Origin: a bacterium
GTDB taxonomy: Bacteria > SAR324 > JACQKK01
Direction: 5' to 3'
Length of the DNA stretch: 64,000 nucleotides
Assembly (NCBI GenBank): GCA_965240465.1
Contig: OZ251219.1
Span: 1,504,001 to 1,568,000 of the forward strand
The notes beneath the pieces were generated by a model. The model made no database searches, was not told the origin of the DNA, and worked only from the letters and a program-made list of their open reading frames with translations. Position numbers and translations under genes: made by a program. Shown here one piece after another: positions 6,898 through 63,969 of the stretch (position 1 is its first letter; every line of letters begins with the position of its first letter).

Positions 6898-6971
6898 ATA
6901 GCATGCTTCATTATAGTATGCTTCATTATAGTATGCTTCATTATAGTATGCTTCACTATAGTATGCTTCAT
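6898..6971. repeat. 15-bp tandem repeat (ATAGTATGCTTCATT), about 5 copies
   Basis: Read directly; encodes SMLHY repeats in the bamA frame. Confidence 0.95.
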
Positions 6972-9449
6972 CTCATTTTTGGACTACTTGAGGAAGTAGT
7001 TCGGGCGTTTTTTCAATCAGCAAGACTACTTTTTTTTCGGGGAATAATCCTAGCAGTACTTTTATTTGGTCTATTGTTGCTGGCACCGAATGCGTATTCA
7101 CAAATCAGCGAACTTAATGGGGTAAAGATTGTAAATGTACAAATAGAAGGTCTGCAAACAGTCGCCTCAGGAGAAATCTTAGGTCGGGTGTTATCAAAGG
7201 TGGGCAACAATTTACAAGTGGAGCTGTTAACACAGGACATTAAAAAAATTCACGCCTTAGGTTTTTTTAGCAATGTTCAAGTGTTAACAGAGCCAGAAAA
7301 GAATGGAATAAAGCTCATATTTCGGGTGACCGAAAGATTGCGGATCGGAGAACTGGAGGTGATAGGCAGCCAGCTGTTAAGCAAGAGTGTTAGAGATAAA
7401 GCAATCACCTTGCGAGAAGGAGAAGTCCTTCTAAAATCCAAATTGGAAGATAATTTAGAATCTTTGAGGCGAGAGTATCGTAAGAAGGGATATTACAAAA
7501 CACGGGTATCTGTAACACAAGAACTCCTTTCAAAAGGGAAAGCACGAGTTACTATAGTGGTGGAAGAAGACCCACGAGTGTACGTCACCAGGATTCGGAC
7601 CCAGGGCAACAAAGCGTTCAGCGGGTTACAGATTCGCCGCTGGATGCGATCTGCCGAAGTAGATTGTTTTAGTTGGATAAATCAATCTGGTTTATTCCAA
7701 GAGGAAAGGATTAACTACGATTTGCAGGCTATCAGCCTAGAATACCTACAACGAGGCTATGTGCGAGTGTTGCTCAAGAAGCCAAAAATAGTATTAGTGC
7801 GTAAACGAGGACATTATGCGGCTCATGTAGATCTATCCATAGTTGAGGGAGAGCAGTACAGCACCCGTATAGTAGATATTCAGGGGGACATCTTAGGTAA
7901 TAAAAGCACAATGCTGAAATTATTAGGTATTAAGTCTCAGGAAGTATTCAATGCACGGGAGCATAATCAGGATATATTTAGATTGCGTAGCCAGTATCAG
8001 GAGCAAGGATATGCTTTTGTGCGTGTTATTCCTGATGTAAGGATTAATGATGAACTCCGTACGGTGGACGTTGTCTATCAGATTTTTCAGGGAGAAAGGG
8101 CGTACATTGGTCGGATAGAGATTCAGGGCAATGACACAACGCATGATCATGTGATTCGCAGGGAGTTTTCACTGACTGAAAACACTTTGTACAATGGAAA
8201 GAAGCTAAAGGAATCTCAAGCAAATTTATCACGCTTGGGATTTTTTGAGCCATCTTTATCTGTTGATACCGAGGTGAGCGATGTAGACAATGTGCTGAAT
8301 GTGGCTACTAAAGTTACTGAGGGGCGTACGGGAAGTTTTCAGTTGCAGCTAACTTATGGAGAGACCACTGGAATACAGACAATTTTTTCGGTGGCTAAGA
8401 CCAATTTTTTGGGTCGCGGGCAAACCATTCGCTTAGATCTGCAAGCAGCTCAGAAGCAGAACGAACGCTCAGCAAGATTGAGTTTTACGGAACCATATTT
8501 ACTAGGAACTTCCATTTCCAGTACCACCTCTTTGTCTTTTTCCCGAGATGATGATTCTTCTGAGCTAGAGCGTGGTTTATTAAGGATAGAAACGGTATCG
8601 CAATCATTATCGCGGAAAATTATTGGACTGTTAAGAGGTAGTATTTCGGTGGCACTTGAAGATGTAGAATTTGAAAAAGATCCCGAATATAACCAGCAAC
8701 TACAATCCACGACTTTGGGATTATCATGGAATACGGTCAATCACCCGATTTTTCCATCCAGTGGAGGTTCTGTGGGGGCATTTGCCACCAATGTAGAAGG
8801 AAGTTCTCGGTTTCGTCGCTACACCCTGAATGGGAGAAAGTTTTTTAGGCTGGACTCTGAAAACATGCTGGTGTTGATGATGCGAGCTCGCTTAGGTTGG
8901 CTAGAAAAAATGGGAGAAGAAGACATCCCCGCTGAACAGCGTTATAGACTGGGAGGAGCTTATACCCTACGAGGATATAGCTACTTGGAAATCGGAGGAG
9001 CATATGGACGCAGACAGCAGGCACTCAATAGTTCATCGGCATTATTCACCGATCTTGAAGGCAACCCCATCGCAGGAAGTAATGGCTATCCTATCAATGG
9101 CTCACAAGACCAGCGTACTATTGGACTTGACCAAGAACAGCGAGATAAATTATCTGGAGGAGGAATTCAACAGCGATTGTTTAACATAGAACTATTGTTA
9201 CCCTTATCGGGACCTGCTTTTCGCAGTGCGATATTCTATGATGCGGGCCAAGTTAACTCAGAAACAGAGCAATATGAGATTCTCGGGACTCCTGAGCCGA
9301 GTTTCTTTGATCTGCGTCAATCTTATGGGGCCGGAATTAGAATTATCACACCGCTGGGGGTACTACGCTTTGAATACGGAATAAAAATAAATCCCCAGCA
9401 AAACGAAGACTCAGATGATTTTGAATTTACCATCAGCTCTTTGTTTTGA
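6903..9449 (+). CDS. bamA: Outer membrane protein assembly factor BamA; start uncertain
   Basis: POTRA-like repeats, GNDTTHDHVIRRE, NFLGRGQ, LRGY loop, GAGIRIITPLG, terminal F. Confidence 0.92.
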   Translation: MLHYSMLHYSMLHYSMLHYSMLHLIFGLLEEVVRAFFQSARLLFFRGIILAVLLFGLLLLAPNAYSQISELNGVKIVNVQIEGLQTVASGEILGRVLSKVGNNLQVELLTQDIKKIHALGFFSNVQVLTEPEKNGIKLIFRVTERLRIGELEVIGSQLLSKSVRDKAITLREGEVLLKSKLEDNLESLRREYRKKGYYKTRVSVTQELLSKGKARVTIVVEEDPRVYVTRIRTQGNKAFSGLQIRRWMRSAEVDCFSWINQSGLFQEERINYDLQAISLEYLQRGYVRVLLKKPKIVLVRKRGHYAAHVDLSIVEGEQYSTRIVDIQGDILGNKSTMLKLLGIKSQEVFNAREHNQDIFRLRSQYQEQGYAFVRVIPDVRINDELRTVDVVYQIFQGERAYIGRIEIQGNDTTHDHVIRREFSLTENTLYNGKKLKESQANLSRLGFFEPSLSVDTEVSDVDNVLNVATKVTEGRTGSFQLQLTYGETTGIQTIFSVAKTNFLGRGQTIRLDLQAAQKQNERSARLSFTEPYLLGTSISSTTSLSFSRDDDSSELERGLLRIETVSQSLSRKIIGLLRGSISVALEDVEFEKDPEYNQQLQSTTLGLSWNTVNHPIFPSSGGSVGAFATNVEGSSRFRRYTLNGRKFFRLDSENMLVLMMRARLGWLEKMGEEDIPAEQRYRLGGAYTLRGYSYLEIGGAYGRRQQALNSSSALFTDLEGNPIAGSNGYPINGSQDQRTIGLDQEQRDKLSGGGIQQRLFNIELLLPLSGPAFRSAIFYDAGQVNSETEQYEILGTPEPSFFDLRQSYGAGIRIITPLGVLRFEYGIKINPQQNEDSDDFEFTISSLF

Positions 9450-9690
9450 TATTGTATGCCTTGTCGGTTGTTAATATCTTCATATGATGATATGTTTCCG
9501 TACCCATGCCCTTAACAAGCTTGGCAGGCTAATCATTACAGAGGGCAGATAAAAACTTTTGACCATGCAATATCGTTTAACTCTCAAACCGCTTGTGATG
9601 CCGCGTGTTGTGCCGTGTGTGTTGCTATTATTAGATCGTTTAATATCTTGGCGAGGTACCCTATCAATCAAATTGGGGGGGGTGTGCTCA

Positions 9691-10218
9691 TTGAAGGTAT
9701 TTTTTGCATTTATGGTGGGTGGAATTATTTTCCCTGCTTTTGTGGTAGGTAATGTTCAGGCAGAAGCAAAACAGGGGTTGAAAATTGCGGTAGTGGATAT
9801 GAATAGGATATTAAATGAGTCTAAAGCTGGTCGTGGTGAAAAAAATAAATTATTGGCAAAACGCGATAAATTGCAAAAAGAATTAAGCATTAAGGAGACT
9901 GAATTCAAAGAAAAAGTGGCTGCTCTGGATGCCAATTTACTGCTGACTGAAGAAGCCCGTAAGCAAGAAGAATTGAAATTACGCCGGCAATTTCAAGAAT
10001 TGCAAGCCCAGATGAAAGATTCCCAAGCTGATCTATCTAAACGGGAACTTGTAGCTACCCAGAGGGTGTTTAAGAAAGCAGAGAGAATTGTTAGAAGATT
10101 AGCCAAAGAAGGCGATTACGACCTCGTTTTGGAGCGTACTAGTGCTGAAACGGTGCTGTATACAAGAGAGCCCTTAGAGGATATTACTAAGCAAGTAATT
10201 TCTGAGATTGGTAATTGA
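9691..10218 (+). CDS. skp: Periplasmic chaperone Skp/OmpH
   Basis: KIAVVDMNRILNES followed by coiled coil; lies after bamA. TTG 9691 taken as the likely start (ORF track begins at 9559). Confidence 0.85.
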   Translation: MKVFFAFMVGGIIFPAFVVGNVQAEAKQGLKIAVVDMNRILNESKAGRGEKNKLLAKRDKLQKELSIKETEFKEKVAALDANLLLTEEARKQEELKLRRQFQELQAQMKDSQADLSKRELVATQRVFKKAERIVRRLAKEGDYDLVLERTSAETVLYTREPLEDITKQVISEIGN

Positions 10219-10234
10219 AGGATAGAGTTGCAAA

Positions 10235-10672
10235 ATGATACCTTATGAAGAAATTACAAAAATCTTGCCTCATCGCTATCCATTTTTGTTATTGGATAGA
10301 GTACTGGAAGTAAAACCCGGTAAAAGTTGTGTGGCTTTGAAGAATGTATCTTGCAATGAGCCTGTTTTTACGGGTCATTTTCCTGGTAGACCTATTTTTC
10401 CTGGGGTTATGTTGCTGGAGGCAATGGCACAAGTTGCTGGTGTGTTAGTAGGTAAGTCGGTAAAAAAGAATGTGAATGACTTTATTCTTTTGTACGTGGG
10501 AGTGGATAAAGCACGTTTTAAGAGACAAATTGTACCCGGTGATACGCTGATTATGGAAGCTAAACTGCTGACCCGTAAGCTAGATATGTGGGTATTTGCG
10601 GTTCAGTCCAAGGTGGATGATGAGCTGGCATGTCGGGCGGAGATTAGACTAGTCACAGTTCCTCGTAGGTAG
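10235..10672 (+). CDS. fabZ: 3-hydroxyacyl-ACP dehydratase
   Basis: LPHRYPFLLLDRV, FTGHFPGRPIFPGVMLLEAMAQ. Confidence 0.95.
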   Translation: MIPYEEITKILPHRYPFLLLDRVLEVKPGKSCVALKNVSCNEPVFTGHFPGRPIFPGVMLLEAMAQVAGVLVGKSVKKNVNDFILLYVGVDKARFKRQIVPGDTLIMEAKLLTRKLDMWVFAVQSKVDDELACRAEIRLVTVPRR

Positions 10673-10721
10673 CCTAAGTACCTTAGACTAACAGAATAGT
10701 CTTGTAGTTTATGTAGAGCCT

Positions 10722-11654
10722 ATGAGCCTGCGAGTAGGTGTTATTGGGGTGGGAAAGTTGGGCAGATTTCATGCTTTGAAATATGCGTCCCTAAGTGAAT
10801 GCCAATTTATTGGCGTCTGCGACCTGAATAGTCAACGCTCGCAGGCGGTAGCTGATGAGCTCGGGGTGCGTGTATTTAAGCAACCCAGGGATCTACTGGC
10901 AGAGGTAGACGCGGTAAGCATTGCAACCATCAGTACCACTCACCACAACATTGGGATGCAAGCATTAACAAGGGGAATACACGTCCTGATGGAAAAACCA
11001 CTGGCGGCTTCCACTAAGGAAGCAGAAGATCTGGTGCTTCTTGCGAACAAGCGACAGCTTATCTTACAGGTTGGTTATCTGGAACGCTTCAACGGAGCAA
11101 TACAGGCCTGTCAAACTAAGATCAAGCGACCCATTTTCATTGATGCCGTTCGGGTGTCTAATTTTTCTGGACGAGGAGAAGACATAGATGTGGTACTAGA
11201 CCTGATGAGTCATGACTTAGATTTAGCCTTGATGATGGACTCTTCCTCCATTCAAGAAATACAAGCGATTGGGGTATCTTTGATGACCGATAAGATTGAT
11301 CTAGCCAATGTAAGATTGCGTTTTGCTTCTGGCTGTGTAGCTAATATTTCTGCCAGTAGGATATCCACTCATTCGGAGCGTAATATGCGGATTTTTCAAA
11401 AAAATTGTTGTTTTTCGCTGGATTTTTCTCTGCCTGCCTGCACCATGCTTACCGTGGGAGATCTTAAAAAAGATAAGCAAACCATTGCGAACTCGCTTGA
11501 TGTTTCCAAACAAGACGCACTGGAAGCCGAAATAAGGTCTTTTATAAATTCCGTGAGAACGAAAAAACCACCCTTAGTCGGTGGTGAAGACGGTTTGCGT
11601 GTAATGAAAGTAGCTGCGAGGATAACGTCCATCATTTTGGAAAATTCTCAGTAA
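10722..11654 (+). CDS. Gfo/Idh/MocA oxidoreductase, GnnA-like (UDP-GlcNAc 3-dehydrogenase)
   Basis: GVGKLG, EKPLA, QVGYLERFN, DVVLDLMSHDLD, ASRIS; lipid A cluster context. Confidence 0.8.
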   Translation: MSLRVGVIGVGKLGRFHALKYASLSECQFIGVCDLNSQRSQAVADELGVRVFKQPRDLLAEVDAVSIATISTTHHNIGMQALTRGIHVLMEKPLAASTKEAEDLVLLANKRQLILQVGYLERFNGAIQACQTKIKRPIFIDAVRVSNFSGRGEDIDVVLDLMSHDLDLALMMDSSSIQEIQAIGVSLMTDKIDLANVRLRFASGCVANISASRISTHSERNMRIFQKNCCFSLDFSLPACTMLTVGDLKKDKQTIANSLDVSKQDALEAEIRSFINSVRTKKPPLVGGEDGLRVMKVAARITSIILENSQ

Positions 11655-11681
11655 TAATTAGATTAAAAAAGGACTAATAAC

Positions 11682-12827
11682 ATGTTTAGTCTCTTAAAGA
11701 GCTGGGTGACTTTCCCCATAAATAAGCTGAGACTCTTGCCACAGCGAATATTCTGGGAGTCATGGAAATCTTTTGTACTGTTTACGGTTATACTGACATT
11801 ATTCTTGCTGTTTCAGAAATTGCATTGGCTTTTGGAATGGATTGTTAGTCACAGGGTAGACTTTAATCTGTTGGGTTGGATGCTACTCTTTTCGTTGCCG
11901 AGCATAATGCTACCCGTAATGATATTTGCAATTGTGGGAGCCGTATTTACGGTGGTAATTAGATATTCTTACAATTTTGAGTTGGTAGCCCTGATGGCTT
12001 CAGGAGTAAGTTTGCGAAGTTATGCTCAAGGTTTTCTTGTGTTTGGCTTTTCAGTGGCTTTACTGGTGGCTACTTTTAGTTTGTGGCTAAGTCCACTGTC
12101 TTTGAGATATTTGAATCAACTACAATTCCAAGCGATTAAAACACGCACATTTCAACGGATTAAACCAGGAAATCTCAATTTTTCCTTACCTAGTATAGTG
12201 ATCTTGAGTAGACAGGTAGAAGAAGGCAATCACTTATATGATGTACATTTCATGCCTCGGTATCCGAAAGATGATTTCAGCATTATTTCGGCTCTCCATG
12301 GATTTTTACTCAATACAGAAAAGCAGCGTCAGCTACTTTTGGTGATAGAAAATGGTGAATCGTTGGAGCTAAGCGAGAAAGAAAGCAGTATCACAAATAT
12401 ACAGTTTGAACGCTCGGAAAACCTGTTAGGAGGACTCGTCAGTGGGCGTCATTTCAAGAATATAAGTAGAATTGAGTTGGAAAGTACTCTCAATTTGCAG
12501 CAGCGGTTAGCTTCTGACAATCTGGGGAACTACGCTCGCCACAATATAGAGCTACAGATTTATAATCGTTGGCTGACGCCGCTGGCATGCATAGCACTTG
12601 TATTGGCTTCTGTACCTATGGCAATGTTGGATCCTCGCTCGGGCAGATATTCTAGCTATCTAAGAGCGGTCATGCTGGTTGCGGTTTATTATTTGGCTTG
12701 GCTAGCCATAACTAATCTGGTTAAAGGACGAGGGTTGCCTTCTGAGTTCATGTTAGGTCCTCTTTCGTTGGTGGGTTGCTATGGCTTGATGCGTTTGCGT
12801 CAATTGAACATTCGCCCTTGGTTTTAG
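11682..12827 (+). CDS. LptF/LptG family permease
   Basis: ELVALMASGVS motif; 3 TM, periplasmic domain, 3 TM layout. Confidence 0.8.
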   Translation: MFSLLKSWVTFPINKLRLLPQRIFWESWKSFVLFTVILTLFLLFQKLHWLLEWIVSHRVDFNLLGWMLLFSLPSIMLPVMIFAIVGAVFTVVIRYSYNFELVALMASGVSLRSYAQGFLVFGFSVALLVATFSLWLSPLSLRYLNQLQFQAIKTRTFQRIKPGNLNFSLPSIVILSRQVEEGNHLYDVHFMPRYPKDDFSIISALHGFLLNTEKQRQLLLVIENGESLELSEKESSITNIQFERSENLLGGLVSGRHFKNISRIELESTLNLQQRLASDNLGNYARHNIELQIYNRWLTPLACIALVLASVPMAMLDPRSGRYSSYLRAVMLVAVYYLAWLAITNLVKGRGLPSEFMLGPLSLVGCYGLMRLRQLNIRPWF

Positions 12828-13642
12828 TAGGAGGAATTGCTGGGACTTGCTGAGAGTTGCTGCAGCCATTGCCACATCGTATTGAATATTTGTTCTTTGT
12901 GCATATTCAGGCGATGGTCTCCATCCTTAAGCAACAATAGTTGCAAGGATTTCTCAGGACATTGCCGCAAGAATTCAGTACTTTTTTCCCAAGGAATGAC
13001 CTCATCAGCAATACCGTGGATTAGCAAAGCGGGGCCTTGCCACTTCTGTAGAAGCTTCTTAAAGGGATATTGATAGCTATCTTCAATCAATTGCCAACCG
13101 AGAAGAATATCCTCCCAGTCAGAATCAAGCCGCAGAATACCCTTTTTTTGCCAGTCTTTCCATCGTTTTGAGGATATATTGCTCTTTATACAATGAGGAA
13201 AATCCAAAGCGGGTGATAACAAGACTAATGGTCCTCCGCTACCGATTTTTAGTTCTCCCTGATACCAAGCAACTAAGGCAGCTCCCATACTGGAGCCTAT
13301 CAGCAATGGAAGAGGAGCTTCTGGTTGGCGTTGCTGTAAGCACCAACTAAGGGCAGTTTCCATATCCGCCAAGGCACGACTGACGGTCATCTCTGCCAGA
13401 TTTCCATCTGATTCTCCATGCCCACGCAAATCCAGCCTGAGAAAACTCCAACCGCGAGCACCAAATTCTTGCTGGAAGAAAAGAGCTTTTTCGCCTTGTC
13501 GGTCCGAAGCCAGTCCATGAACGAATACCGCCATAGGTGCAGTAGGAGAAGCCGATAACCAGTCCACCATTATCGCTTCCTTGTTGGTGGAAGAATTATC
13601 AACAACTAACCTATGGGTCTCTATAACAGGATTTTTACTCAA
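12824..13642 (-). CDS. Alpha/beta hydrolase
   Basis: VHGLASD, RGHGES, GSSMG, HGIADEVIP, GDHRL. Confidence 0.9.
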   Translation of the reverse strand: MSKNPVIETHRLVVDNSSTNKEAIMVDWLSASPTAPMAVFVHGLASDRQGEKALFFQQEFGARGWSFLRLDLRGHGESDGNLAEMTVSRALADMETALSWCLQQRQPEAPLPLLIGSSMGAALVAWYQGELKIGSGGPLVLLSPALDFPHCIKSNISSKRWKDWQKKGILRLDSDWEDILLGWQLIEDSYQYPFKKLLQKWQGPALLIHGIADEVIPWEKSTEFLRQCPEKSLQLLLLKDGDHRLNMHKEQIFNTMWQWLQQLSASPSNSSY

Positions 13643-13655
13643 TGATAAACGCGGT

Positions 13656-15014
13656 TTAAGAGTTCACACTACGGGCTTGGGCTGGGTTCACAAACGCCAA
13701 TAGCACTCCCCCTGCCAGAAAAAAGGCGTTAAGACTCAAAAGAGCAATGCGAGTATCACCGCTGATAAAAACCAATCCGCCAAATACAAGAGGCCCCATC
13801 ATAGCAGAAAAACGAGAACTTAGTGCAAAGAAAGAGAAATACTCAGCCTCCCTGCCATAAGGGATGAAGCTGGCAAATAAAGATCGGCTGATAGCCTGCA
13901 ACCCTCCCAAGAAGAGACCGATCAAGACTGCCAACCAATATAATTCTACTAGGGTGTGGATAACCTGAGCTAGCAAAATAGTTATGCTGAAAGCTATCAA
14001 GCAAATAAAAATAGTGGTTTTTTCACTAGTGCGATTACTCAGCCAACCCAAAAAAAGAGTGCCAGGTATGTTCATAACCTGAATGATGATAATCATTAAA
14101 ATCAAGTCCTTAATACCTACTTTTTGGCTCAGGGAGGCATCGGTATAGATGTTTTGCAGAGCGTACGGGGTTGCATTTGAAATAAGGGTAGCAATGCCAT
14201 CATTATACAACAAGAAAGCCAATAAAAAGCGGAGGTGGTGCGGGTGTTTAAGTAAATTAAGCAGAGAACGTTTTAAGCTGCCAAAAATGCTTTTTACTTG
14301 GGTCTGGGAGGTAGCTGGTAGCCATCCCAAAGATAAGATGCCAAAACATCCCCACCAGAGCCCTATCAGCAAGAACGCGGTAGGTAGGTGATCGGGGACC
14401 AGCCATATCAGCAGTGCCAGCAATATCAATGCCCCTCCAGCGTAGCCCAGGGCATACCCTAAGCTAGAAAGACGAGCATTTTCCTTAGGGTTAGAAGTCA
14501 ATTGAGGCAAATAAGCATTGTAAAATACATTGGCAGATTCATATCCTACATTGCCTATAAAGACCAACAGCCCAATCACTGCCCAAGACCAAGAAACATC
14601 GCTCCACAAGGGCCAAAGCGATTGCCCCACAGTAGCCGTAGCACCAAGCAAGCAAAATAACAGTGCAAACTGCTTGTGCTTGCCACGGGCATCTACCACA
14701 GGACCTAAAAGTAATGCCCCTAAGGCAGCTACTCCCGCTGATGCCCCCACCAATATTGACCAAGCTGCTTCTGCCGTCCAACGACTTCCAAATAACGGTA
14801 AGGCTAGGGCAGAACCTACTCTTAGACCTCCAGCTTCTTCTGCCGCTTGTTCAAACAGGGCAATAAACCAAGCCGAACCCAATACCGTCATCACACAAAG
14901 GACAAAAGCACTGTTAGCCCAATCGTAGAAAGCCCAACGCCAGCCGTTCTTTCCAATTCCCCGCCCTAAATCTGGAATACGATTTTTTAAGTCAATCAGC
15001 AGAGAATTAAACAT
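13656..15014 (-). CDS. MFS transporter, UMF1/Atg22-like
   Basis: WAFYDWANSAF, FYNAYLP, GYALGYAGG, QAISRSLF. Confidence 0.88.
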   Translation of the reverse strand: MFNSLLIDLKNRIPDLGRGIGKNGWRWAFYDWANSAFVLCVMTVLGSAWFIALFEQAAEEAGGLRVGSALALPLFGSRWTAEAAWSILVGASAGVAALGALLLGPVVDARGKHKQFALLFCLLGATATVGQSLWPLWSDVSWSWAVIGLLVFIGNVGYESANVFYNAYLPQLTSNPKENARLSSLGYALGYAGGALILLALLIWLVPDHLPTAFLLIGLWWGCFGILSLGWLPATSQTQVKSIFGSLKRSLLNLLKHPHHLRFLLAFLLYNDGIATLISNATPYALQNIYTDASLSQKVGIKDLILMIIIIQVMNIPGTLFLGWLSNRTSEKTTIFICLIAFSITILLAQVIHTLVELYWLAVLIGLFLGGLQAISRSLFASFIPYGREAEYFSFFALSSRFSAMMGPLVFGGLVFISGDTRIALLSLNAFFLAGGVLLAFVNPAQARSVNS

Positions 15015-15039: not shown

Positions 15040-15137
15040 GCAAGCAAGGATAGCAAACAAGGATCGCAAACAAGGATCGCAAACAAGGATAGCAAACAAG
15101 GATCGCAAATAGGGATCGCAAACAAGGATCGCAAATA
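15040..15137. repeat. 13-bp tandem repeat (CAAGGATCGCAAA), about 7 copies, intergenic
   Basis: Read directly. Confidence 0.95.
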
Positions 15138-20607: not shown

Positions 20608-20671
20608 GCAAATAGCATGGCAAATGACATGGCAAATGACATGGCAAATGACATGGCAAATGACATGGCAA
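20608..20671. repeat. 12-bp tandem repeat (CATGGCAAATGA), about 5 copies, in a divergent intergenic region
   Basis: Read directly. Confidence 0.95.
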
Positions 20672-20758
20672 CCAACACGATAGGCAACATGATACATTCA
20701 CTGTGAAATCCCGCTATGAGATGTCGCTACGAAATGTCCTGCGGTTTGGGAGATTGAT

Positions 20759-22393
20759 TTGAACGAAAGCGTTGTACCCCTAGAGCGTGTGAAAGTAGCG
20801 GTTTGGAGTGAATTGGCAGACCGTAATCCTGCCTACGCTCTGGTAGCTGGGGTTGACTTGGTATTGGTGCGTTGGGATGAGCAAGTTTCGGTATTGTATG
20901 GGCGATGTTTGCATCGCGGAGCCTTAATGTCGGATGGGAGAATTGAGGGGGATAATTTGATATGCGGCATGCATAATTGGGATTATTGTTTTGAGACTGG
21001 GGTCAGTGGTTACAACTCCGCAGAGAGATTACACAAGTTTAATGCTTGGGTGCAAGAAGATGCTGTGTATGTTGACCGATTGGAAATAGAAGCGTGGGAA
21101 AAGGACAATCCGCAACCTTATGACCGAGATACCTATCAGGGACTGTACGCTGATATTCATGGTACCCCTGATGAACCACACAACGCTTATATTAGAGAGT
21201 TAGCGGTCAATGGTCTTGAGAAGATGGGTCAGCATGGCTGGGTATCGGCTATGGGTGTATCTCGGGAAAGATTGCCTAGTTGGGATGATATTCAGATAAT
21301 CACTGCTCAGTTGGCGGTTAGTCCTCAGCAGGATAATGTTGCGGTTGGTACGGAGCTAGTGATTGGCACCCGAGCCAAAAAGCCCTTACTTTTGAGTATT
21401 CCTTTGTTTGTCAGCGACATGAGCTTTGGTGCTCTTAGTGAGGAAGCCAAGGTGGCTTTGGCAAAAGGGGCAGAATTAGCAAAGACTGGCATTTGCTCTG
21501 GTGAAGGAGGTATGTTACCTGAGGAAAAACAAGCTAATTCACGCTATTTTTATGAGCTCGCTAGTGCACGTTTTGGCTGGTCTTTGGATAGGGGAGCTAG
21601 TTGTCAGGCATTTCATTTCAAATCTGGTCAAGGTGCTAAGACTGGTACTGGCGGTCATTTGCCCGGCAAAAAGGTGCAGGGTAAAATCGCTAAGGTGCGT
21701 GGACTTACTCCGGGTACCTCTGCGATTAGTCCCGCAGCTTTCCCCGACCTCCATACTCCTCAAGATTATGCCCGCCTAGCTGATGAAGTCCGCCAAGCTT
21801 CGGGTGGCATCCCGATCGGCTTTAAGATGTCCGCCCAGCATATTGAAAAAGACTTGGACTTCGCCTTAGAGGCTGGTGCAGATTACATCATTCTGGATGG
21901 CCGTGGCGGAGGAACTGGGGCAGCTCCTAACATCTTCAAGGATCATATTTCGGTCCCTACCATGGCGGCTTTGGTGCGGGCTCGCAGACACCTAAATAAA
22001 TTGGGGCAACAGGACATCACTCTCATTATTACAGGCGGCTTGCGTACCGAAACCGATTTTGTCAAAGCACTGGCACTAGGAGCAAACGGTATCGCCGTTT
22101 CCAACTCAGCCATACAGGCGATCGGTTGTTTGGGTATGCGTGCCTGTCATACCAATAACTGCCCCGTAGGAATTGCTACCCAGCAATCTCATTTGCGGGC
22201 ACGACTGTTAGTGGATGCCTCGGCACAACAGCTGGCAAACTTCTTCCAAGCCACCGTGGAACTGATGAAAATTCTCTGCCGTGCCTGCGGGCATACTCAC
22301 CTTAATCAATTCAACACCGACGACGTCGCCACCTTGAACAGAGATATTGCCATGCTTACTGGTATTAATTATGCTGGCGTTATGTCGCCATAA
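20759..22393 (+). CDS. Rieske [2Fe-2S] domain fused to an FMN-binding glutamate synthase-family domain
   Basis: CLHRG...CGMHNW; MSFGALS, GEGG, QGAKTGTGGHLPG, DGRGGGTGA, GCLGMRACHTNNCPVGIATQ. Confidence 0.9.
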   Translation: MNESVVPLERVKVAVWSELADRNPAYALVAGVDLVLVRWDEQVSVLYGRCLHRGALMSDGRIEGDNLICGMHNWDYCFETGVSGYNSAERLHKFNAWVQEDAVYVDRLEIEAWEKDNPQPYDRDTYQGLYADIHGTPDEPHNAYIRELAVNGLEKMGQHGWVSAMGVSRERLPSWDDIQIITAQLAVSPQQDNVAVGTELVIGTRAKKPLLLSIPLFVSDMSFGALSEEAKVALAKGAELAKTGICSGEGGMLPEEKQANSRYFYELASARFGWSLDRGASCQAFHFKSGQGAKTGTGGHLPGKKVQGKIAKVRGLTPGTSAISPAAFPDLHTPQDYARLADEVRQASGGIPIGFKMSAQHIEKDLDFALEAGADYIILDGRGGGTGAAPNIFKDHISVPTMAALVRARRHLNKLGQQDITLIITGGLRTETDFVKALALGANGIAVSNSAIQAIGCLGMRACHTNNCPVGIATQQSHLRARLLVDASAQQLANFFQATVELMKILCRACGHTHLNQFNTDDVATLNRDIAMLTGINYAGVMSP

Positions 22394-52430: not shown

Positions 52431-52597
52431 AGATAGGAGGCATGGATGGCACAGATAGAGGCATGGATAAGGCAGATAATAGGCATAGATGGCACAGATA
52501 AGAGGCATAGATGGCACAGATAGAGGCATGGATAAGAGGCAGATAAGAGGCATAGATGGCACAGATAAGAGGCATGGATAGGAGGCACCGATAAGAT
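52431..52597. repeat. Mosaic tandem array built from GAGGCAT(A/G)GAT, GGCACAGATA and GATAA modules
   Basis: Read directly; ends at the rsmA ATG. Confidence 0.9.
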
Positions 52598-56424: not shown

Positions 56425-58626
56425 ATGGATATAAACATAAATAAGCAAGTTAAAAAAAATGACGAGTATGAAGCTCCAGAGATAAAATTAAAGGGGATCA
56501 AGTTCAAAGGAGTAATTAGTCGCTCGGACAAAGCTCATCAGGCGGGCGGGGGCGAAGCTCCTTATCAGGCGAGGGCGGGCGGGACTCAGGCGAGGGGGGG
56601 GGGGGGCGAAGCTCCTTATCAAGCGAGGGCAGGCGGGACTCAGGCGAGGGGAGGGGGGGGCGAAGCTCCTTATCAAGCGAGGGGGGGCGAAGCCCCTTAT
56701 CAAGCGAGGGCAGGCAGGACACAGGCGGGCGGAGATTATCAATCGAGGGCAGGCGGGACTCAGGCGAGGGGGGGGGGGGGCGAAGCTCCTTATCAAGCGA
56801 GGGCGGGCAGGACACAGGCGGGGGGGGGCGAAGCTCCTTATCAAGCGAGGGGGGGCGAAGCTCCTTATCAAGCGAGGGCAGGCAGGACACAGGCGGGCGG
56901 AGATTATCAAGCGAGGGGAGGGGGGGGCGAAGCTCCTTATCAGGCGAGAGGGGGCGAAGCTCCTTATCAGGCGAGAGGGGGCGAAGCTCCTTATCAAGCG
57001 AGGGCAGGCGGGACTCAGGCGAGGGCAGGCGGGACTCAGGCGAGGGGAGGCGAAGCTCCTTATCAGGCGAGAGGGGGCGAAGCTCCTTATCAAGCGAGGG
57101 CAGGCAGGACACAGGCGAGCGGAGATTATCAAGCGAGGGGAGGCGGGGGCGAAGCTCCTTATCAAGCGAGGGCGGGCAGGACTCAGGCGGGGGGGGGCGA
57201 AGCTCCTTATCAGGCGAGGGCGGGCAGGACTCAGGCGGGGGGGGGCGAAGCTCCTTATCAGGCAGGCGAGGGCATAGATCATCATCAGGCGAGGACGGGC
57301 GGAGTATTGGTTACTCGTGGGCGTTCTATAGTGAAGGAAGAGCATGAAACTTCAAATTGGCGGAAGAGACCGAGCGATGAGTTATTGATGCGTTGTGTGT
57401 TGCTGGATAGTATAGCGGGCAGTGAGGGCATTACGGGGGAAGGTATTGCGGGTGAAGGTATTGCGGGGGAGGAGCGGGAGCGTCAGTTGCTATCTGGGGT
57501 GGATTGGAATTTGGCTGTCAAGCACATATTTGAGTTGCATAGGTTATACACTGGGAGGGGAAAGAAGGAGTATCAGGGGGTAGAGAATCCTTTATGGGGT
57601 CGGGAGTTGGGGTATCAGTTGTATTATTTACCTCGTAATTTGCATAGGGTTCGTTGTGTGTTGCGCGGGTTGCCTTGGTTTCAGGGTGGGGAGGACTGGT
57701 TATTGCGTCCTTGGCTAAGATTGCGTGATGGTGAGTGGTCGTTGTCTTGGTTGGACTTAGGTTGTGGGACGGGGGCCTTTAGTTTGGCTTGGTTGCAGTG
57801 GTTGGCGGGCTTAGGGGCACCCCTTGAGGGATGGCCTAGCTTACATATTACCCTAGTTGATCAATCTCATCGCCTATTGGATATAGCTGAGCGTCAAATA
57901 CGTCTATATGTTAAGGTAGCCTTACCAGCAGCTAAGTTGAGAATAGTGCGAGTGGCCCGCGGGATTGCTCCGTGGTTGGAGAGTGAGGCTGGGAAGAAGT
58001 CATTTTGTTTGGTAGGGGTAGCGATGTCTTTAACGGAGCTAGGATTATTGGGGCCGCGTCGTAAGAGTGAGCGTTCTGGCATTATGCTCAAAGGACTGCA
58101 AGAACGCGTTTCCAATGGGGGCTTGATGCTCTTTGTGGAACCGGGCGTTCGTAAGGGCTATCTTAACCTGATGATGCTACATCCTTGGCTAAGAAAACAC
58201 CCGATATTGTATCCGTGTCCTCATCAGCAGCCTTGCCCGATGTGGCATCCTGCCGTGCGTAATTGGTGTCATGCCACTGAAATACTGCCTCGGCACTTCT
58301 TTTTTGATGAGCCACTGCAACGCTATGGTGGACTTCAGTTTAATATGCGTGATGTCAATCTTTCTGCTTTGGCGGTTCAAAACACTGCCGATAGCAGCAC
58401 TCCGCCATTTCGTCATTTGCAAGCTGGGGAAAGAGTGGTCTCTGGACTGATGCCTTTCAAGCAAGCCATGGCTTTTCCTCGGGTAATTAGAGATTCTTTG
58501 CATTCTTCGCCTCTATCTAAATCCTGCTTGGTATGTACTGCCAACGGAAAACTGCGAGTGCTATCCGTATCGTCTCAAGATGAAGATATCTACCGAGGAG
58601 CTTGGCTTCGGACTTCCCAGAAATAA
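56425..58626 (+). CDS. Rsm22-family SAM-dependent methyltransferase with a long N-terminal RGG/Gly-rich repeat
   Basis: YYLPRN, LDLGCGTG, FVEPG, YPCPHQQPCPM...WCH. Confidence 0.78.
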   Translation: MDININKQVKKNDEYEAPEIKLKGIKFKGVISRSDKAHQAGGGEAPYQARAGGTQARGGGGEAPYQARAGGTQARGGGGEAPYQARGGEAPYQARAGRTQAGGDYQSRAGGTQARGGGGEAPYQARAGRTQAGGGEAPYQARGGEAPYQARAGRTQAGGDYQARGGGGEAPYQARGGEAPYQARGGEAPYQARAGGTQARAGGTQARGGEAPYQARGGEAPYQARAGRTQASGDYQARGGGGEAPYQARAGRTQAGGGEAPYQARAGRTQAGGGEAPYQAGEGIDHHQARTGGVLVTRGRSIVKEEHETSNWRKRPSDELLMRCVLLDSIAGSEGITGEGIAGEGIAGEERERQLLSGVDWNLAVKHIFELHRLYTGRGKKEYQGVENPLWGRELGYQLYYLPRNLHRVRCVLRGLPWFQGGEDWLLRPWLRLRDGEWSLSWLDLGCGTGAFSLAWLQWLAGLGAPLEGWPSLHITLVDQSHRLLDIAERQIRLYVKVALPAAKLRIVRVARGIAPWLESEAGKKSFCLVGVAMSLTELGLLGPRRKSERSGIMLKGLQERVSNGGLMLFVEPGVRKGYLNLMMLHPWLRKHPILYPCPHQQPCPMWHPAVRNWCHATEILPRHFFFDEPLQRYGGLQFNMRDVNLSALAVQNTADSSTPPFRHLQAGERVVSGLMPFKQAMAFPRVIRDSLHSSPLSKSCLVCTANGKLRVLSVSSQDEDIYRGAWLRTSQK
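56533..57300. repeat. Mosaic G-rich array with 15 copies of the GGCGAAGC(T/C)CCTTATCA core (GEAPYQ)
   Basis: Core copies counted in the translation; linker modules ARAGGTQ, ARAGRTQ, GDYQ, ARGG. Confidence 0.95.
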
Positions 58627-60186: not shown

Positions 60187-60228
60187 CATTGATTGTCAGC
60201 GAGGCATTTTGGCTCTATGCTGGTAGAG

Positions 60229-60270
60229 CATGGCAGATAGATCATGACAGATAGATCATGGCAGATAGAT
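60229..60270. repeat. 14-bp tandem repeat (CATGGCAGATAGAT), 3 copies
   Basis: Read directly. Confidence 0.92.
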
Positions 60271-60292: not shown

Positions 60293-61294
60293 ATGAAGAT
60301 AGGCATTGTAGGATTATCAGGGAGTGGCAAAAGCACCTTATATCGGGCTTTGGGAGGTTCTAGCGGTGAGGTCTGTACCATAAAATCTCCTGATGAGCGA
60401 GTGGATGCCCTAGCCAAGCTGAGTGGCTCTAAAAAGCGTACCTATGTGGAGGTGAGCTTTGTTTCTTCTTCGGGAGGGAGTAATTTTCAGGCTCTGCAAG
60501 CGGATGCCCTAGTAGTAGTGTTGAGAGGCTTTGACAGCAGTACCCCTGCCTCGCCAGCAACCGAATGGAAAGAATGGGAATCCGAACTGATCTTAACCGA
60601 TATGGAGCTGTTAGAAAATCGCATTTCACGGCTACACAAAGAGCATAAGCCCGAACAAAAATCAGAGCTTGAATTATTGCAGCAATGCTTGGCTCATCTG
60701 GAGAATGGTAAGCGTTTGATTAGCTTTTCACGGGATAAGCAAGCCCAAAGAATTCTAAGTGGATACTCGTTATTATCAGCTAAGCCCGTCTTGCCCCTGC
60801 TAAACTTGGATGAAAACCGCTTCACCGCTCAAGAGCGATCGCTACAGCAATCGCTACAGCAATCGCTACAATCGCTGCAAACCGCCCCCGAATGCCAACC
60901 CATGAGCCTCTGCGCCCAACTGGAAATGGAAATAAGCCAGCTATCAGCCGAAGAACAACCCGAATTCTTAGCCAGCTTGAACCTAGAAAAACCCGTCCGA
61001 GAACGCTTTATTCAAGCTGCCTTTGGTATGTTGGATCTCATTTGCTTTTTAACCACCGGCCCCGAGGAAAGTCGTGCTTGGTCAATCTCCTCAGGGTCAT
61101 CGGCTCAGCAGGCAGCAGGCAAAATCCATTCCGACATCGCCCGAGGCTTTATCCGAGCTGCGGTCATTCCCTATCAGCAGTTGCTAGAAATCGGCTCGGA
61201 AAAGGAAGCCCGCCAGCAAGGGAAAATCCGCTTGGAAGGCAAGCAGTACGTGGTTCAAAATGGCGATGTCATTCACTTCCGCTTTGCAACCTAA
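60293..61294 (+). CDS. ychF: YchF-family ATPase, shortened and divergent
   Basis: GIVGLSGSGKST, LLSAKP, AAGKIHSDIARGFIRA, EGKQYVVQNGDVIHFRF. Confidence 0.85.
   Translation: MKIGIVGLSGSGKSTLYRALGGSSGEVCTIKSPDERVDALAKLSGSKKRTYVEVSFVSSSGGSNFQALQADALVVVLRGFDSSTPASPATEWKEWESELILTDMELLENRISRLHKEHKPEQKSELELLQQCLAHLENGKRLISFSRDKQAQRILSGYSLLSAKPVLPLLNLDENRFTAQERSLQQSLQQSLQSLQTAPECQPMSLCAQLEMEISQLSAEEQPEFLASLNLEKPVRERFIQAAFGMLDLICFLTTGPEESRAWSISSGSSAQQAAGKIHSDIARGFIRAAVIPYQQLLEIGSEKEARQQGKIRLEGKQYVVQNGDVIHFRFAT
60838..60880. repeat. 12-bp coding repeat (SLQQ) inside ychF
   Basis: ATCGCTACAGCA units. Confidence 0.85.
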
Positions 61295-61297
61295 CCG

Positions 61298-61325
61298 CAC
61301 TGCGATCCATCACTGCGATCCATCA
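61298..61325. repeat. 13-bp duplication (CACTGCGATCCAT) filling the convergent junction
   Basis: Read directly. Confidence 0.85.
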
Positions 61326-63953
61326 AGGGCTGCACTGAATAGGACACTGAATATGGCTTGAAGGCTGATAACAAATGAGATCGCCTTCTACTTGAACATC
61401 GCTTTCTGCTTTATATGACTTCAGGCTGGGATATTTGCCCGCGGCGAAATCCCAATTAAAGCCATTCCAGCCATCGTAGCTACCATTATCGCAGAGCTGA
61501 TTGGAGGGATCGGTAATGTTCCAAGTGCCACCAATATTGGCAGCCTCGCAGGCAGCTTGAGTATCGGGAGCTAGGTTGGTCAAGGTCTGTAGTTGCTCGG
61601 CAGTTTTGCCCCGTGCCTTAGTTGAATCCAGGGTGAGCTCCGTCCCACCGCTTAGAGAAATATCAGTGTCATAATAGCTATTGGTGATCTCACCTACGTT
61701 ATTAAATATTGTTCCCACCAATCTACCTACTTTGTCTGCACCTTCCCCTCCATCAACCGCAACTAGAGCATAGCTGTCCCTAATATAGATATTTAAGAAA
61801 CCTTGCTGAAAGAAGCCTTCCACCCCAAAAACCCCTACCAAACCACCTACTGTGTCGTTACCCGTGCCACCATTAGCAGGACCAGTAGCATAACTGTTTG
61901 CAATGATGGCATTAGATACAAAACCATAAGTACTTCCTAGATTAATCCCCACCAAACCACCTACTGAATCATTATCTTCATCACCATTGACTGTACCAGT
62001 CGCATAGCTGTTTTGGATCAGCCTTCCATTATTCCCCACCAAGCCGCCTACATTATCACTACCCGTGCCACCATTGACTGTACCAGCCGCATAGCTGTTT
62101 CTAATATAGCCGTTATTATACCCTACCAACCCCCCCACTTTGTCATGATTAACACCGCCATAAACATCTCCAGTGGCATAACTGCCCGCAACATTACCTC
62201 CTACAATCTCCCCTACTAACCCCCCCACTCTGTCATTACCACCTGAACCACCATAAACATCCCCAGTCGCATAACTACCTTCAACATTACTTTTGTAAAG
62301 ACTCCCTACCAACCCCCCCACTTCGTTATCACTACCTGAACTGCTAGTTACATTTCCAGTGGCATGACTGTTTTTAATCAGGCTATTTTCTATAGCTAAC
62401 CCTGCCAACCCGCCAACCCTGTTGGAATTACTACTGATAATAACACTGCCCACGGCATAACTGCTTTCAATCTCACCTTTGTTTACCGTTCCCACCAAGC
62501 CACCTACAGAGTTACGCCTACCCTCATCGCCAGCAACATCACCCGTGGCTAAGCTGTTTCTTATTATACCTTCGCTATATCCCACCAAGCCACCTACATG
62601 GTTAAACTTACCCGCACCGCCAACAACATCGCCCATGGCATAACTGTTCACGACAGTCCCATTATTGCTTCCCGCTAATCCTCCTAACTCATTACCTTCA
62701 CCCGCACCACCAGTAACATCGCCAGTGGCATAGCTACTCTGGATGATACCCTCACTACGCCCTACCAACCCGCCAGCTCGCACATAATCACCATCGGCAA
62801 CCGCAATCTCTAACTCAGCCGAAACATTATCTATTACCCCACCACTCCTTAACAAAGCTACCACCGCACCTACAAAATTAGGAGACGCATCCGCTCCCAT
62901 TGCCCAACTGCTATAAACAAAACCTGATTCAAACGATAAGTCGCGAACCGTACCACTTAACACCGCAAAAAACCCCGTGTGTTCGGTGTCGTTATCAAGG
63001 TTGAGATTATTGATGGTATAATTACCTCCATCAAAGACAGCCTCAAAGGGAGCATTCCCACTGCCTATTGGACTCCAATTAGACAGAGAAAGTAGCTCAA
63101 TGTCGTTCACCAGTTCATAGCCATTGCACCCCGTACTCGGACAACCAATGCTAGAACCTGTATCGGCATCACTGATCTTGTAGCTATCGCCTGCCAAGTT
63201 GTAGCGAATGTTATTCAACTGAGCCAAATTAGAAATATCAATTAAACCATCGCCATCTCTATCGGGATCTTGACCGCCCGCATCGGGGTCTTCCAAAGAA
63301 TCTAGGCAACCATCCGAGTCGGCATCGTTGATGGCAGTATCCCAGTTTTTTGCTCCTACTGGGCAATTATCGGAAGTGTCTGCTATTCCATCATTGTCAT
63401 CATCGGAGTCCGCGGAATCCAATTCACCGTCATTATCAGCATCGGTACCTGCACCCTGATCTTCATCCGTGCTGGCATCCTGACAACCATCTGAATCGGC
63501 ATCTTCTGCGGTGTTGCTCTGCCATAATCTCGTTCCTCTTTGGCAGCCATCTGCTGTATCTAAGATGAGGTCATTGTCATCATCAAGGTCGGTAGTATCT
63601 GGCTGGCCATCATTATCGTAATCGCTGCCTAGGCCTTGGTCCTTATCCTCTTTATGAGAATCAAAACAGCCGTCTAAGTCTTGGTCTGTGCTGGGACCAC
63701 TGACGAACCCTACTGGACTGTAACGGCATAAATCTTGGCTGTTTAGGATTCCATCACCATCGGAATCCCCGCTACTTTCCACCCCCACGCCCCCGACCCC
63801 GCCACCTCCACCTACTCCTCCAGTGCTGCTACCCCCCCCCTCCCCTCCCCCCCAGCAACCACTAACGAACAAGGCTAGAACTAAGAACAAGAAATGGATG
63901 CTTCCAGTATTCTTAGAGTTCATTATTGTGCTCCTCATTATTGTGCTTATCAT
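61323..63953 (-). CDS. Surface lipoprotein with thrombospondin type 3-like Ca-binding repeats and GLUG repeats
   Basis: Lipobox FVSGC; DxDxDG...D.C repeats; about 12 VGGLVG...NSYATG repeats. Confidence 0.85.
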   Translation of the reverse strand: MISTIMRSTIMNSKNTGSIHFLFLVLALFVSGCWGGGEGGGSSTGGVGGGGGVGGVGVESSGDSDGDGILNSQDLCRYSPVGFVSGPSTDQDLDGCFDSHKEDKDQGLGSDYDNDGQPDTTDLDDDNDLILDTADGCQRGTRLWQSNTAEDADSDGCQDASTDEDQGAGTDADNDGELDSADSDDDNDGIADTSDNCPVGAKNWDTAINDADSDGCLDSLEDPDAGGQDPDRDGDGLIDISNLAQLNNIRYNLAGDSYKISDADTGSSIGCPSTGCNGYELVNDIELLSLSNWSPIGSGNAPFEAVFDGGNYTINNLNLDNDTEHTGFFAVLSGTVRDLSFESGFVYSSWAMGADASPNFVGAVVALLRSGGVIDNVSAELEIAVADGDYVRAGGLVGRSEGIIQSSYATGDVTGGAGEGNELGGLAGSNNGTVVNSYAMGDVVGGAGKFNHVGGLVGYSEGIIRNSLATGDVAGDEGRRNSVGGLVGTVNKGEIESSYAVGSVIISSNSNRVGGLAGLAIENSLIKNSHATGNVTSSSGSDNEVGGLVGSLYKSNVEGSYATGDVYGGSGGNDRVGGLVGEIVGGNVAGSYATGDVYGGVNHDKVGGLVGYNNGYIRNSYAAGTVNGGTGSDNVGGLVGNNGRLIQNSYATGTVNGDEDNDSVGGLVGINLGSTYGFVSNAIIANSYATGPANGGTGNDTVGGLVGVFGVEGFFQQGFLNIYIRDSYALVAVDGGEGADKVGRLVGTIFNNVGEITNSYYDTDISLSGGTELTLDSTKARGKTAEQLQTLTNLAPDTQAACEAANIGGTWNITDPSNQLCDNGSYDGWNGFNWDFAAGKYPSLKSYKAESDVQVEGDLICYQPSSHIQCPIQCSP

Positions 63954-63969
63954 TGTTGGCTCCTCATTG
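63921..63969. repeat. Degenerate 15-bp repeat (CATTATTGTGCTCCT) across the gene start
   Basis: Read directly; gives alternative in-frame Met codons. Confidence 0.75.

Follow-up and report, generated by a model that had tools for sequence, protein, structure and literature searches.

Locus-specific tandem repeats in two SAR324-like genomes lie in chromosomal zones, follow synonymous G+C and keep the reading frame in genes

The window, the whole 64,000-nt stretch analysed here, lies on a cellular chromosome of 1.60 Mb with SAR324-like kin (genome G000), and we compared it with a congener, a separately assembled species (G001). With Tandem Repeats Finder (calls merged, score at least 50, units of 10–30 bp) we found 26 arrays in the window, in agreement with the preliminary description, which had counted about 25, each with its own unit. 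The features of the window are as follows, with the strand where one is assigned; GC4 denotes synonymous G+C.

1..14900: array-poor margin of a low-GC zone, with a single array and GC4 0.41 (0.35 in the 30 kb upstream); grades into an array-rich zone, GC4 0.43–0.48
6898..6971, plus strand: 15-bp array, in frame, N-terminal region of bamA
15040..15135: 13-bp x7.4 intergenic array, gap-free in contigs from two runs of one sample
16073..16147, minus strand: 15-bp array, linker of a MurC-MurB fusion
20608..20738: 12-bp x5.3 array and adjoining 13-bp x2, intergenic
22393..22453: 29-bp x2.1 duplication occupying a gene junction
25460..25505: 14-bp x3.3 array spanning a stop codon, ahead of serS
27357..27506: 20-bp x7.6 intergenic array
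30188..30243: 19-bp x2.9 array spanning the xseA stop
33057..33415: 13/15-bp compound array, then a 107-bp x2.1 duplication (33192–33415)
33458..33559, minus strand: 24-bp in-frame array, an insertion relative to the G001 ortholog
35234..35290: 12-bp x4.8 intergenic array
36401..36444: 15-bp x2.9 intergenic array
38524..38560, plus strand: 12-bp in-frame array at a C-terminus
39940..39987: 24-bp x2 intergenic duplication
44278..44306: 14-bp x2.1 intergenic duplication
44567..44719: 25-bp x6.1 intergenic array
48897..48971: 13-bp x5.8 intergenic array
49804..49921: 23-bp x4.8 intergenic array
51319..51632, plus strand: 810-aa ORF holding two in-frame arrays (units of 21 bp and 15 bp), the 21-bp array within an insertion missing from the G001 ortholog
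52431..52596: 13/22-bp compound intergenic array
56537..57291, plus strand: 21/27-bp compound array, the window's largest (252 codons), encoding a Gly/Ala/Gln/Arg-rich insert of 252 aa within the ORF of an Rsm22-like methyltransferase
57422..57467, plus strand: 15-bp in-frame array in the Rsm22-like methyltransferase ORF too
60224..60270: 14-bp x3.4 intergenic array
60834..60870, plus strand: 12-bp in-frame array in ychF, an insertion relative to the G001 ortholog
61298..61325: 13-bp x2.2 duplication, spacer of convergent genes
63920..63976, minus strand: GLUG-repeat protein with a 15-bp array at its start

The unit lengths given earlier match ours, including the two-copy 24-mer at 39940, which Tandem Repeats Finder had not called and in which 21 of 24 bases agree; the largest array, the compound array at 52431–52596 and the 107-bp duplication had been overlooked. 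One array per about 2.5 kb holds as a number but not as a spacing, with 1 array in the first 14.9 kb and 25 in the remainder. Over the whole of G000 we counted 516 arrays with 511 distinct units, and none of 159 G001 units was identical to any G000 unit. The arrays are confirmed as real and genome-wide, and chance is ruled out, as exact two-copy units of 11–30 bp number hundreds in G000 against 0–1 per length in three codon-shuffled genomes. No transposase occurred among the window ORFs scanned (50 with NCBIfam, 17 with Pfam), no reverse transcriptase (RVT_1) in five of five genomes, and no Rfam match in a check for CRISPR, retro-element or mobile footprints; neither a shared unit, a flanking element nor a strong motif was found, in accordance with the earlier claim of no shared element. 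G000 carries bacterial 16S rRNA, 45 tRNA/tmRNA genes, dnaA-dnaN-recF-gyrB and genes on both strands, at a coding density of about 90%. An overlap of the contig ends was rejected as a circular overlap (617/2109), and a search for a dif site in G000 identified none.

Array density varied 7-fold along G000 (20.0 vs 2.8 arrays per 40 kb), in zones of 150–350 kb that were mirrored about the origin; dnaA (605 kb) gave the best symmetry of all axes (r 0.76, phase-surrogate p 0.002). For G001, symmetry was rho 0.68 (n=10) within about 540 kb of dnaA, a limit set after the data were seen, and 0.19 (n=19) over the whole arm. Within each genome, density followed synonymous G+C, which is a new observation: rho was 0.77 over 39 bins of G000, a value reached by 0 of 77 rotations, and 0.84 over 37 stretches of G001. 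Between G000 and G001, ortholog differences in density and GC4 agreed closely (rho 0.92), ortholog GC4 itself was uncorrelated (-0.04, 341 pairs), and the densities of orthologous stretches were anti-correlated (-0.43, 36 stretches). Since the differences agree and the zones of the two genomes are out of phase, position decides, not gene content. Taken together, these findings suggest that repeats and base composition are shaped by one position-dependent mutation process. The literature searched, which took in few subscription journals, contained no description of these repeats in the SAR324-like lineage, nor of GC3-linked minisatellite zones in bacteria. On balance we lean towards the reading that the arrays arose by replication-coupled duplication and substitution on one chromosomal wave, with drift retaining them and selection on frame filtering them, as neutral-to-tolerated scars in a genome-reduced lineage.

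In the GC-rich isochores of eukaryotes, minisatellites grow by unequal exchange and G+C by biased gene conversion. A recombination landscape of this kind, in which G+C rises by conversion and arrays grow by exchange wherever sister or inter-copy recombination is frequent, would explain the link to GC4 no less well than the replication wave does. The genes recA, recF, recJ and ruvB are intact, E. coli queries for RecG, RecQ and SbcD found no match, and bacterial recombination maps are often replichore-symmetric and correlated with G+C (PMC11879095). However, copy number and purity were independent of zone (rho 0.03 and -0.03), and such a landscape gives neither the seed length nor the junctions described below. 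The same source argues against biased conversion in bacteria and reports landscapes conserved across orthologs, whereas those of G000 and G001 are reversed. We therefore regard recombination as an unlikely cause.

Non-coding units peaked at 13–14 bp in both genomes, which is likewise new. Observed against shuffled counts were 37/0 at 13 bp and 36/0 at 14 bp in G000, with few extra units of 2–6 bp (86/66), and 11/0 and 13/0 in G001. The exact two-copy count excludes the score threshold of Tandem Repeats Finder as the source of the 13-bp mode; 12- and 15-bp units are under-counted in non-coding DNA because the ORF caller absorbs stop-free arrays. Zero overhang, that is no junction microhomology, was the commonest junction class (21 of 98 clean arrays in G000, 13 of 45 in G001), and an excess of 2–5-bp overhangs in G000 (36 of 98, about 17 expected) points to some use of microhomology. 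Units and flanks were mildly enriched in GCA/TGC only (220 vs 170), without positional bias in 36 clean arrays, replichore asymmetry of motifs, leading/lagging asymmetry or a primase-like motif; a G-rich leading-strand bias of units was rejected, being the same as background (0.073 vs 0.083). Changes within arrays were transition-rich and balanced (AT>GC 87 vs GC>AT 96).

We then compared these products with the replication and repair genes. G000 retains mutS, mutL, recJ, full-length polA, ssb, dnaN, uvrA, uvrB, uvrC and mfd. No PF00929 or TIGR00573 match to DEDDh/DnaQ was obtained in G000 or G001 (best E of a custom HMM 0.01), the PHP proofreading site is degenerate, and Pol I has lost the ExoI acids that all 9 other aligned genomes of the family retain, its 5' nuclease acidic residues appearing intact by sequence. 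Missing, too, is the canonical UvrD/PcrA-type helicase, clade 'a' of a quick tree only, which is present in 37 of 43 genomes of the order; it matches PcrA/UvrD/Rep models better, by scores that do not tell Rep from PcrA/UvrD, and a divergent UvrD-family paralog is still present. A relative, G040, likewise has neither helicase 'a' nor a dnaQ match, its PHP and Pol I exonuclease motifs are degenerate, and in the 400 kb sampled it showed 2.0 arrays per 100 kb and no 13–14 peak. Because equal losses go with few arrays there, loss of the UvrD/PcrA-type helicase or of proofreading is ruled out as a sufficient cause. The proposed lineage specificity is supported, arrays being dense in G000 and G001 and few in G040.

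The modal unit equals the UvrABC product length, and in uvrD cells 13-mers were the most abundant excision product and remained genome-bound (PMC11536166). Given intact uvrA, uvrB, uvrC and mfd and the lost helicase, a 12–13-nt excised oligomer might stay bound while exonuclease-dead Pol I fills the gap, both copies occasionally being ligated. Yet unit positions 8–9 bore no dipyrimidine signature (14/31 vs 16.0 expected, dipyrimidines only), the 16–18-bp tail and the GC4 link are not predicted, the UvrD-family paralog remains, and G040 shares the helicase loss without the arrays; we consider such repair patches quite improbable. Slippage of the classical Streisinger kind, brought on by lost proofreading or mismatch repair as in Portiera, appears more doubtful still. 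The lack of DnaQ, the 2–5-bp microhomology and the non-coding homopolymers of G000 (91 vs 34 shuffled) would suit it, but mutS and mutL are intact, the 2–6-bp excess is small, zero overhang is modal, and homopolymers are not in excess in G001 (8 vs 10). Of the polymerase slippage or repair defect first proposed, a proofreading and helicase defect thus exists, though not as a sufficient cause; ordinary slippage or a mismatch-repair defect was not supported in the form proposed.

All 10 window arrays in real ORFs have units divisible by 3, compared with 3 of 16 non-coding ones, among which we scored those starting at 44278 and 52431, placed by a crude ORF caller in short spurious ORFs. Genome-wide, 238 of 264 ORF arrays keep the frame, which bears out the frame filtering that had been suggested and answers the accompanying check of unit length modulo 3. 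We find it very unlikely that the arrays serve as contingency loci under selection, whether to tune expression or to build disordered regions of proteins. In-frame arrays do yield low-complexity inserts, and 68 of 266 CDS arrays in G000 lie within 150 nt of the called start; but no unit is shared with G001, density is reversed between orthologous regions, and convergent spacers are struck about as often as divergent, promoter-bearing ones (44/185 vs 50/192). The idea of expression tuning accordingly found no support. A raw excess of arrays in spacers under head-on transcription (69/356 vs 49/364) disappeared upon stratification by zone (p 0.64); head-on CDS arrays numbered 152 vs 114 as a raw count without stratification.

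An assembly artefact or a hybrid genome has a negligible chance of being the explanation: matching contigs came only from a single sample (two runs), which may be the source, and no RNA run was listed among the matches, but separately assembled G001 has the same unit spectrum, an artefact could not respect reading frame, contigs span several arrays without gaps, and ortholog identity is 61–68% in every density class with no rise where zones agree, on which ground a hybrid origin was rejected. As to copy-number variation within a population, the contigs of the two runs shared a single minor joint (30220>30137).

For the replication-coupled reading, we propose the following course. At a nick or short gap, about 12–16 nt would be copied twice, hardly depending on microhomology. 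The most likely means is strand displacement, or re-equilibration of a flap, while polymerases that lack canonical proofreading fill gaps on the lagging strand or at repair sites; the product is what we observe, and the enzyme is inferred. The seed would then grow or shrink by whole units, as mismatch repair clears loops of a few bases and not these. Chromosome position sets the rate, in the mirrored zones of G000 where synonymous G+C is higher, and duplications and G+C may both follow one wave of replication errors because uncorrected errors are A:T>G:C-biased. Frame-breaking units in genes are purged by selection, and the remainder probably persists under weak selection in a presumably host-restricted lineage. 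Against this reading stand G040, the absence of strand asymmetry, the partial symmetry of G001, the signs of some microhomology use, and the in-array equilibrium GC of G001 (0.35), lower than its GC4 (0.56). The evidence comes from two genomes of one evolutionary origin.

More tentatively, and with less than even confidence, the genus may possess bacterial isochores: zones anchored at the origin, with a phase that differs between the sister species, where a single process raises G+C and makes 13–14-bp duplications without microhomology, possibly via re-ligated excision-repair or lagging-strand patches. If so, both chromosomes would preserve a fossil record of replication-linked mutagenesis and would reveal a new way in which minisatellites arise at a set unit length. 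Some thousand independent seeds, a narrow range of unit lengths and phase-switching zones make G000 and G001 a gene-controlled natural experiment. It touches on three open questions, namely how minisatellites are seeded from unique DNA, how Borg-type repeats originate, and whether G+C within bacterial chromosomes is set by replication waves or by biased gene conversion.

Several known systems resemble parts of this picture. Like G000, Ehrlichia ruminantium, a host-associated bacterium, has genome-wide tandem repeats in a small genome; its variable repeats reportedly have much longer units and are mostly non-coding. Portiera BT, too, has a reduced genome in which intergenic repeats of a sharply preferred unit length have proliferated, and it has lost dnaQ (Sloan and Moran 2013, PMC3673631); its mode is 7 bp rather than 13–14, and it also lost mutL, ssb, dnaN and ruvC, the first three of which G000 keeps. 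In rad27 yeast, which is deficient in flap endonuclease, faulty Okazaki maturation yields duplications of several bases, some of them direct and free of microhomology (PMC13493898), and duplications free of microhomology occur in G000 too; in contrast, the Pol I 5' nuclease of G000 looks intact, and the available part of that source gives no 13–14-bp mode. In repair-defective bacteria, as described for E. coli, substitution waves mirror each other about the origin, independently of transcription and with A:T>G:C-biased errors (Foster 2013, PMC3583449; Niccum 2019, PMC6606806). Mirror symmetry about oriC was seen in G000 and only partly in G001. The laboratory wave concerns base substitutions at 2–4-fold amplitude, whereas G000 holds a natural, 7-fold record of duplications with a GC4 imprint and a phase that differs between congeners. 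The flattening of the E. coli wave by Rep loss (PMC6606806) counts against the replication-wave reading. Borg elements come closest, with units unique to each locus, frame-preserving in ORFs and absent from homologs (Schoelmerich et al. 2023, PMC9879509). Under the Borg criterion (perfect repeats, at least 50 nt, at least 3 units), applied with units up to 60 bp, 120 regions make up 0.70% of G000, against 0.62% of an average Borg (PMC9879509), so that the Borg-like density first described was borne out. Borgs, however, are linear archaeal extrachromosomal elements with terminal inverted repeats and one gene strand per replichore; G000 is a cellular, circular-type bacterial chromosome whose dnaA cluster, rRNA, tRNAs and two-stranded genes reject Borg membership. 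Borg units are A-biased, but non-coding units of G000 hold 27% A against a 30% background, many of its arrays are degenerate, and its array density follows zones around oriC and varies with GC4. Repeat density at Borg level thus needs no Borg polymerase.

Short tandem-repeat arrays, each with its own unit, do occur across the window as the preliminary description claimed, and G000, the genome of the window, holds 645 merged Tandem Repeats Finder (TRF) arrays, 516 of them with units of 10-30 bp. The claimed lack of a shared element sequence holds genome-wide, 511 of these 516 units being distinct. Exact arrays per 100 kb number 28.1 in the window, 24.6 in G000, 13.5 in its congener G001 (740 kb) and 9.0 in G008 (480 kb), a sister lineage in the PolA and DnaE tree (87% bootstrap, long branches) with an intermediate load and a unit mode of 10 bp (loci L146-L152, L295-L311). 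Among other relatives we counted 2.5 in G009 (120 kb), 2.0 in G040 (400 kb), 1.7 in G004 (60 kb), 0 in G038 (60 kb) and 1.25 in four members of the order (80 kb); 76 loci, mostly from distant bacteria, gave 1.1. In two runs of one sample, perhaps the source sample, contigs crossed the arrays at window 15040, 22393 and 25460 without gaps, and contigs broke at longer perfect arrays, where depth was raised. Contigs of both runs also contain a minor joint that jumps back by 84 bases at window 30137-30220, the 3' end of xseA; its depth is 12.6 and 15, and it may be a segregating tandem duplication. At full depth both runs have one extra base after intergenic position 30302, probably an assembly error.

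G000 is one contig of 1,599,138 bp, on which the window occupies C1:1504001-1568000. It has 45% G+C, a crude ORF call makes about 90% of it coding, and it contains a single match to bacterial 16S rRNA and 45 tRNA/tmRNA genes; a selenocysteine tRNA is kept in this reduced genome (G000:C1:118512-118610). The sole congener, G001, has 1.72 Mb in one contig, and the remaining family members have 2.3-5.2 Mb. Housekeeping genes in the window include bamA, murC-murB, serS, proS, xseA, ruvB and ychF, the RuvB having a relative at 61% identity that is titled 'SAR324 cluster bacterium'. Other features of the window are:
1354-2586, N6/N4 DNA methylase in fusion with an HNH domain
4694-6127, top model a eukaryote-type glutathione synthase, with a score under its cut-off
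15147-17525, MurC-MurB fusion protein
39122-39847, ankyrin-repeat protein
40033-41145, histidine decarboxylase
46252-47493, Eco57I-type methylase, in a stretch of 30% G+C
61323-63953, GLUG-repeat secreted-type protein
Because the genome is reduced and an ankyrin-repeat gene is present, we infer that the lineage is host-associated; the ankyrin-repeat protein, histidine decarboxylase and GLUG-repeat protein are compatible with this. GCGC, TCGA, CCGG and GGCC are depleted across G000 to 0.12-0.30 of expectation.

Unit lengths were taken from an exact two-copy count, which is independent of the TRF threshold. Non-coding units of 10 to 18 bp in G000 numbered 12, 13, 20, 37, 36, 8, 18, 9 and 8, respectively, against 0.0-0.4 per length in shuffles, and units of 2-6 bp totalled 86 against 66 shuffled. 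In G001 the corresponding numbers were 11, 13, 8 and 6 for 13 to 16 bp, respectively, and lengths of 10-12 bp gave 6. Not one of 159 G001 units recurs in G000; the length scale is therefore inherited, not the arrays themselves. Clean perfect arrays ended without a partial copy, at an overhang of zero bases, in 21/98 cases in G000 and 13/45 in G001, the most frequent class in both. Random breakpoints would place 52 of the 98 G000 arrays in this class, and overhangs of 2-5 bases are in excess, so that seeding uses slight, but some, microhomology. The flat tail of overhang lengths is added by erosion. No strong motif or replichore asymmetry was found in the units.

The earlier observation that units inside ORFs are multiples of three extends to the genome: this was so for 238 of 264 units in called ORFs, compared with 45/167 intergenic units and 23/85 straddling an ORF boundary. 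Array density was 158 per 100 kb outside ORFs versus 18 inside, and thus most coding events have been removed. The in-frame arrays in ychF and in ORFs 33362 and 49948 are insertions relative to their G001 orthologs; five further proteins showed no such gap or were unaligned over the array.

Array density differs 7-fold among zones of G000 (20.0 versus 2.8 per 40 kb), and its best mirror axis, at 605 kb, lies on dnaA (605,074). Counted from the origin, arrays per 40 kb were as follows:
arm 1: 24 26 24 22 24 15 16 5 13 9 4 3 4 9 21 35 24 9 14
arm 2: 11 23 20 19 17 16 15 17 3 3 3 1 1 3 10 18 20 4 2
The arms correlate with r 0.76, reached by 11 of 5000 phase surrogates, and the window lies on the left arm's second density peak. 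G001, sampled in 37 stretches of 20 kb (43% of its genome), is almost empty of arrays around the origin and rich in them in the mid-arms, with partial mirror symmetry. Stretch by stretch, density in one genome is anti-correlated with that of its ortholog in the other (rho -0.43, n=36): a collinear block, G000 1256-1326 kb, has many arrays in G000 and none in G001, and array-poor 1039-1062 kb corresponds to a part of G001 with 14 arrays. Both congeners have a divergent DnaA (about 205 bits against a cut-off of 344; G000:C1:605074-606393), and its gene sits in an intact dnaA-dnaN-recF-gyrB cluster adjoining ssb.

G+C at four-fold sites (GC4) follows the zones. In G000, after exclusion of genes with over 5% repeat coverage, rho was 0.77 over 39 bins, and none of 77 rotations or reflections was as high; adjacent bins are not independent, so that it is the rotation test that should be relied on. 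In G001 rho was 0.84 over the 37 stretches, GC4 ranging from 0.45 to 0.71. GC4 of 341 ortholog pairs was uncorrelated (-0.04), and their GC4 difference tracked the density difference (0.74 by gene, 0.92 by stretch). Masked intergenic G+C also tracked array density (0.46), and second codon positions did not (-0.19). The link was absent in G008 (0.06, n=24) and G040 (0.18, n=20), which have few arrays to correlate.

Among the repair genes named for inspection, mutS, mutL, polA and recJ proved present in both congeners. A DEDDh (DnaQ-type) domain was found in neither, 10/21 genomes having one, and single E. coli queries of G000 did not find sbcB, sbcD, recQ, recG or ung. Both congeners carry recA, uvrB, uvrC, rnhB and dnaE, and E. 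coli queries also matched uvrA, mfd, ssb, priA, ligA, recF, two xthA and mutM in G000, where UvrA is an 1864-aa tandem double (G000:C1:562883-568477). No Y-family polymerase or reverse transcriptase was found; a stand-alone RNase D-like exonuclease is still present. Pol I keeps the acidic residues of its 5' nuclease. What we take to be its ExoI acids are gone in G000 and G001 and kept in 9/9 of the remaining family genomes in the alignment, which does not include G002 and G010. Of the 9 positions that we take to be ligands of the DnaE PHP domain, 4-6 differ in G000, G001 and G008, and all are intact in five relatives. There are two UvrD-family clades, one of which (helicase 'a') gets the higher scores with PcrA, Rep and UvrD models; 37/43 genomes in the order carry it, and G000, G001, G018, G031, G039 and G040 lack it. 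G008 has a degenerate PHP, no DnaQ match and a long-branched helicase 'a'. These losses do not by themselves cause arrays: G040, a 4.3-Mb single-contig relative without recognisable proofreading exonuclease or canonical UvrD/PcrA (loci L320, L322, L272), has all four yet few arrays, and a neighbouring family has likewise lost the Pol I and PHP motifs. The proofreading and helicase losses are at most permissive.

Taken together, our results show that seeds have a fixed length and weak microhomology, that the zones are anchored on the origin and shared with GC4, and that selection acts on frame. Seeds may originate where polymerases without proofreading fill nicks or short gaps. Published work describes such duplications in flap-endonuclease-deficient yeast (PMC13493898), displacement of downstream primers by Pol I at Okazaki junctions (10.1101/2022.08.02.502465), and origin-symmetric substitution waves, mostly A:T>G:C, in E. 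coli mutators (PMC6606806, PMC3583449). An error wave dominated by A:T>G:C would lift GC4 where errors are common. Changes inside G000 arrays were balanced (87 AT>GC, 96 GC>AT); endosymbiont changes are more AT-biased. Recombination with biased conversion (PMC11879095) accounts for the GC link as well as a mutation wave does, but leaves the seed length unexplained. That length matches the 13-nt UvrABC product in cells without UvrD (PMC11536166, PMC10614213, PMC2997466), an attractive reading that did not hold up in the single sequence test made of it or against the G040 control.

The likeness to Borgs suggested earlier extends to density: by the Borg criterion, perfect arrays make up 0.70% of G000 DNA, and PMC9879509 gives 0.62% for Borgs. 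The basic pattern of repeat proliferation is already known; it works like the repeat proliferation of Borgs, Portiera and Ehrlichia and belongs to none of these. A comparable unit mode might appear in the supplementary data on Borgs. In the papers searched we found no account of a 13-14-bp scale, of array density in lock-step with GC4 or of the phase reversal between congeners.
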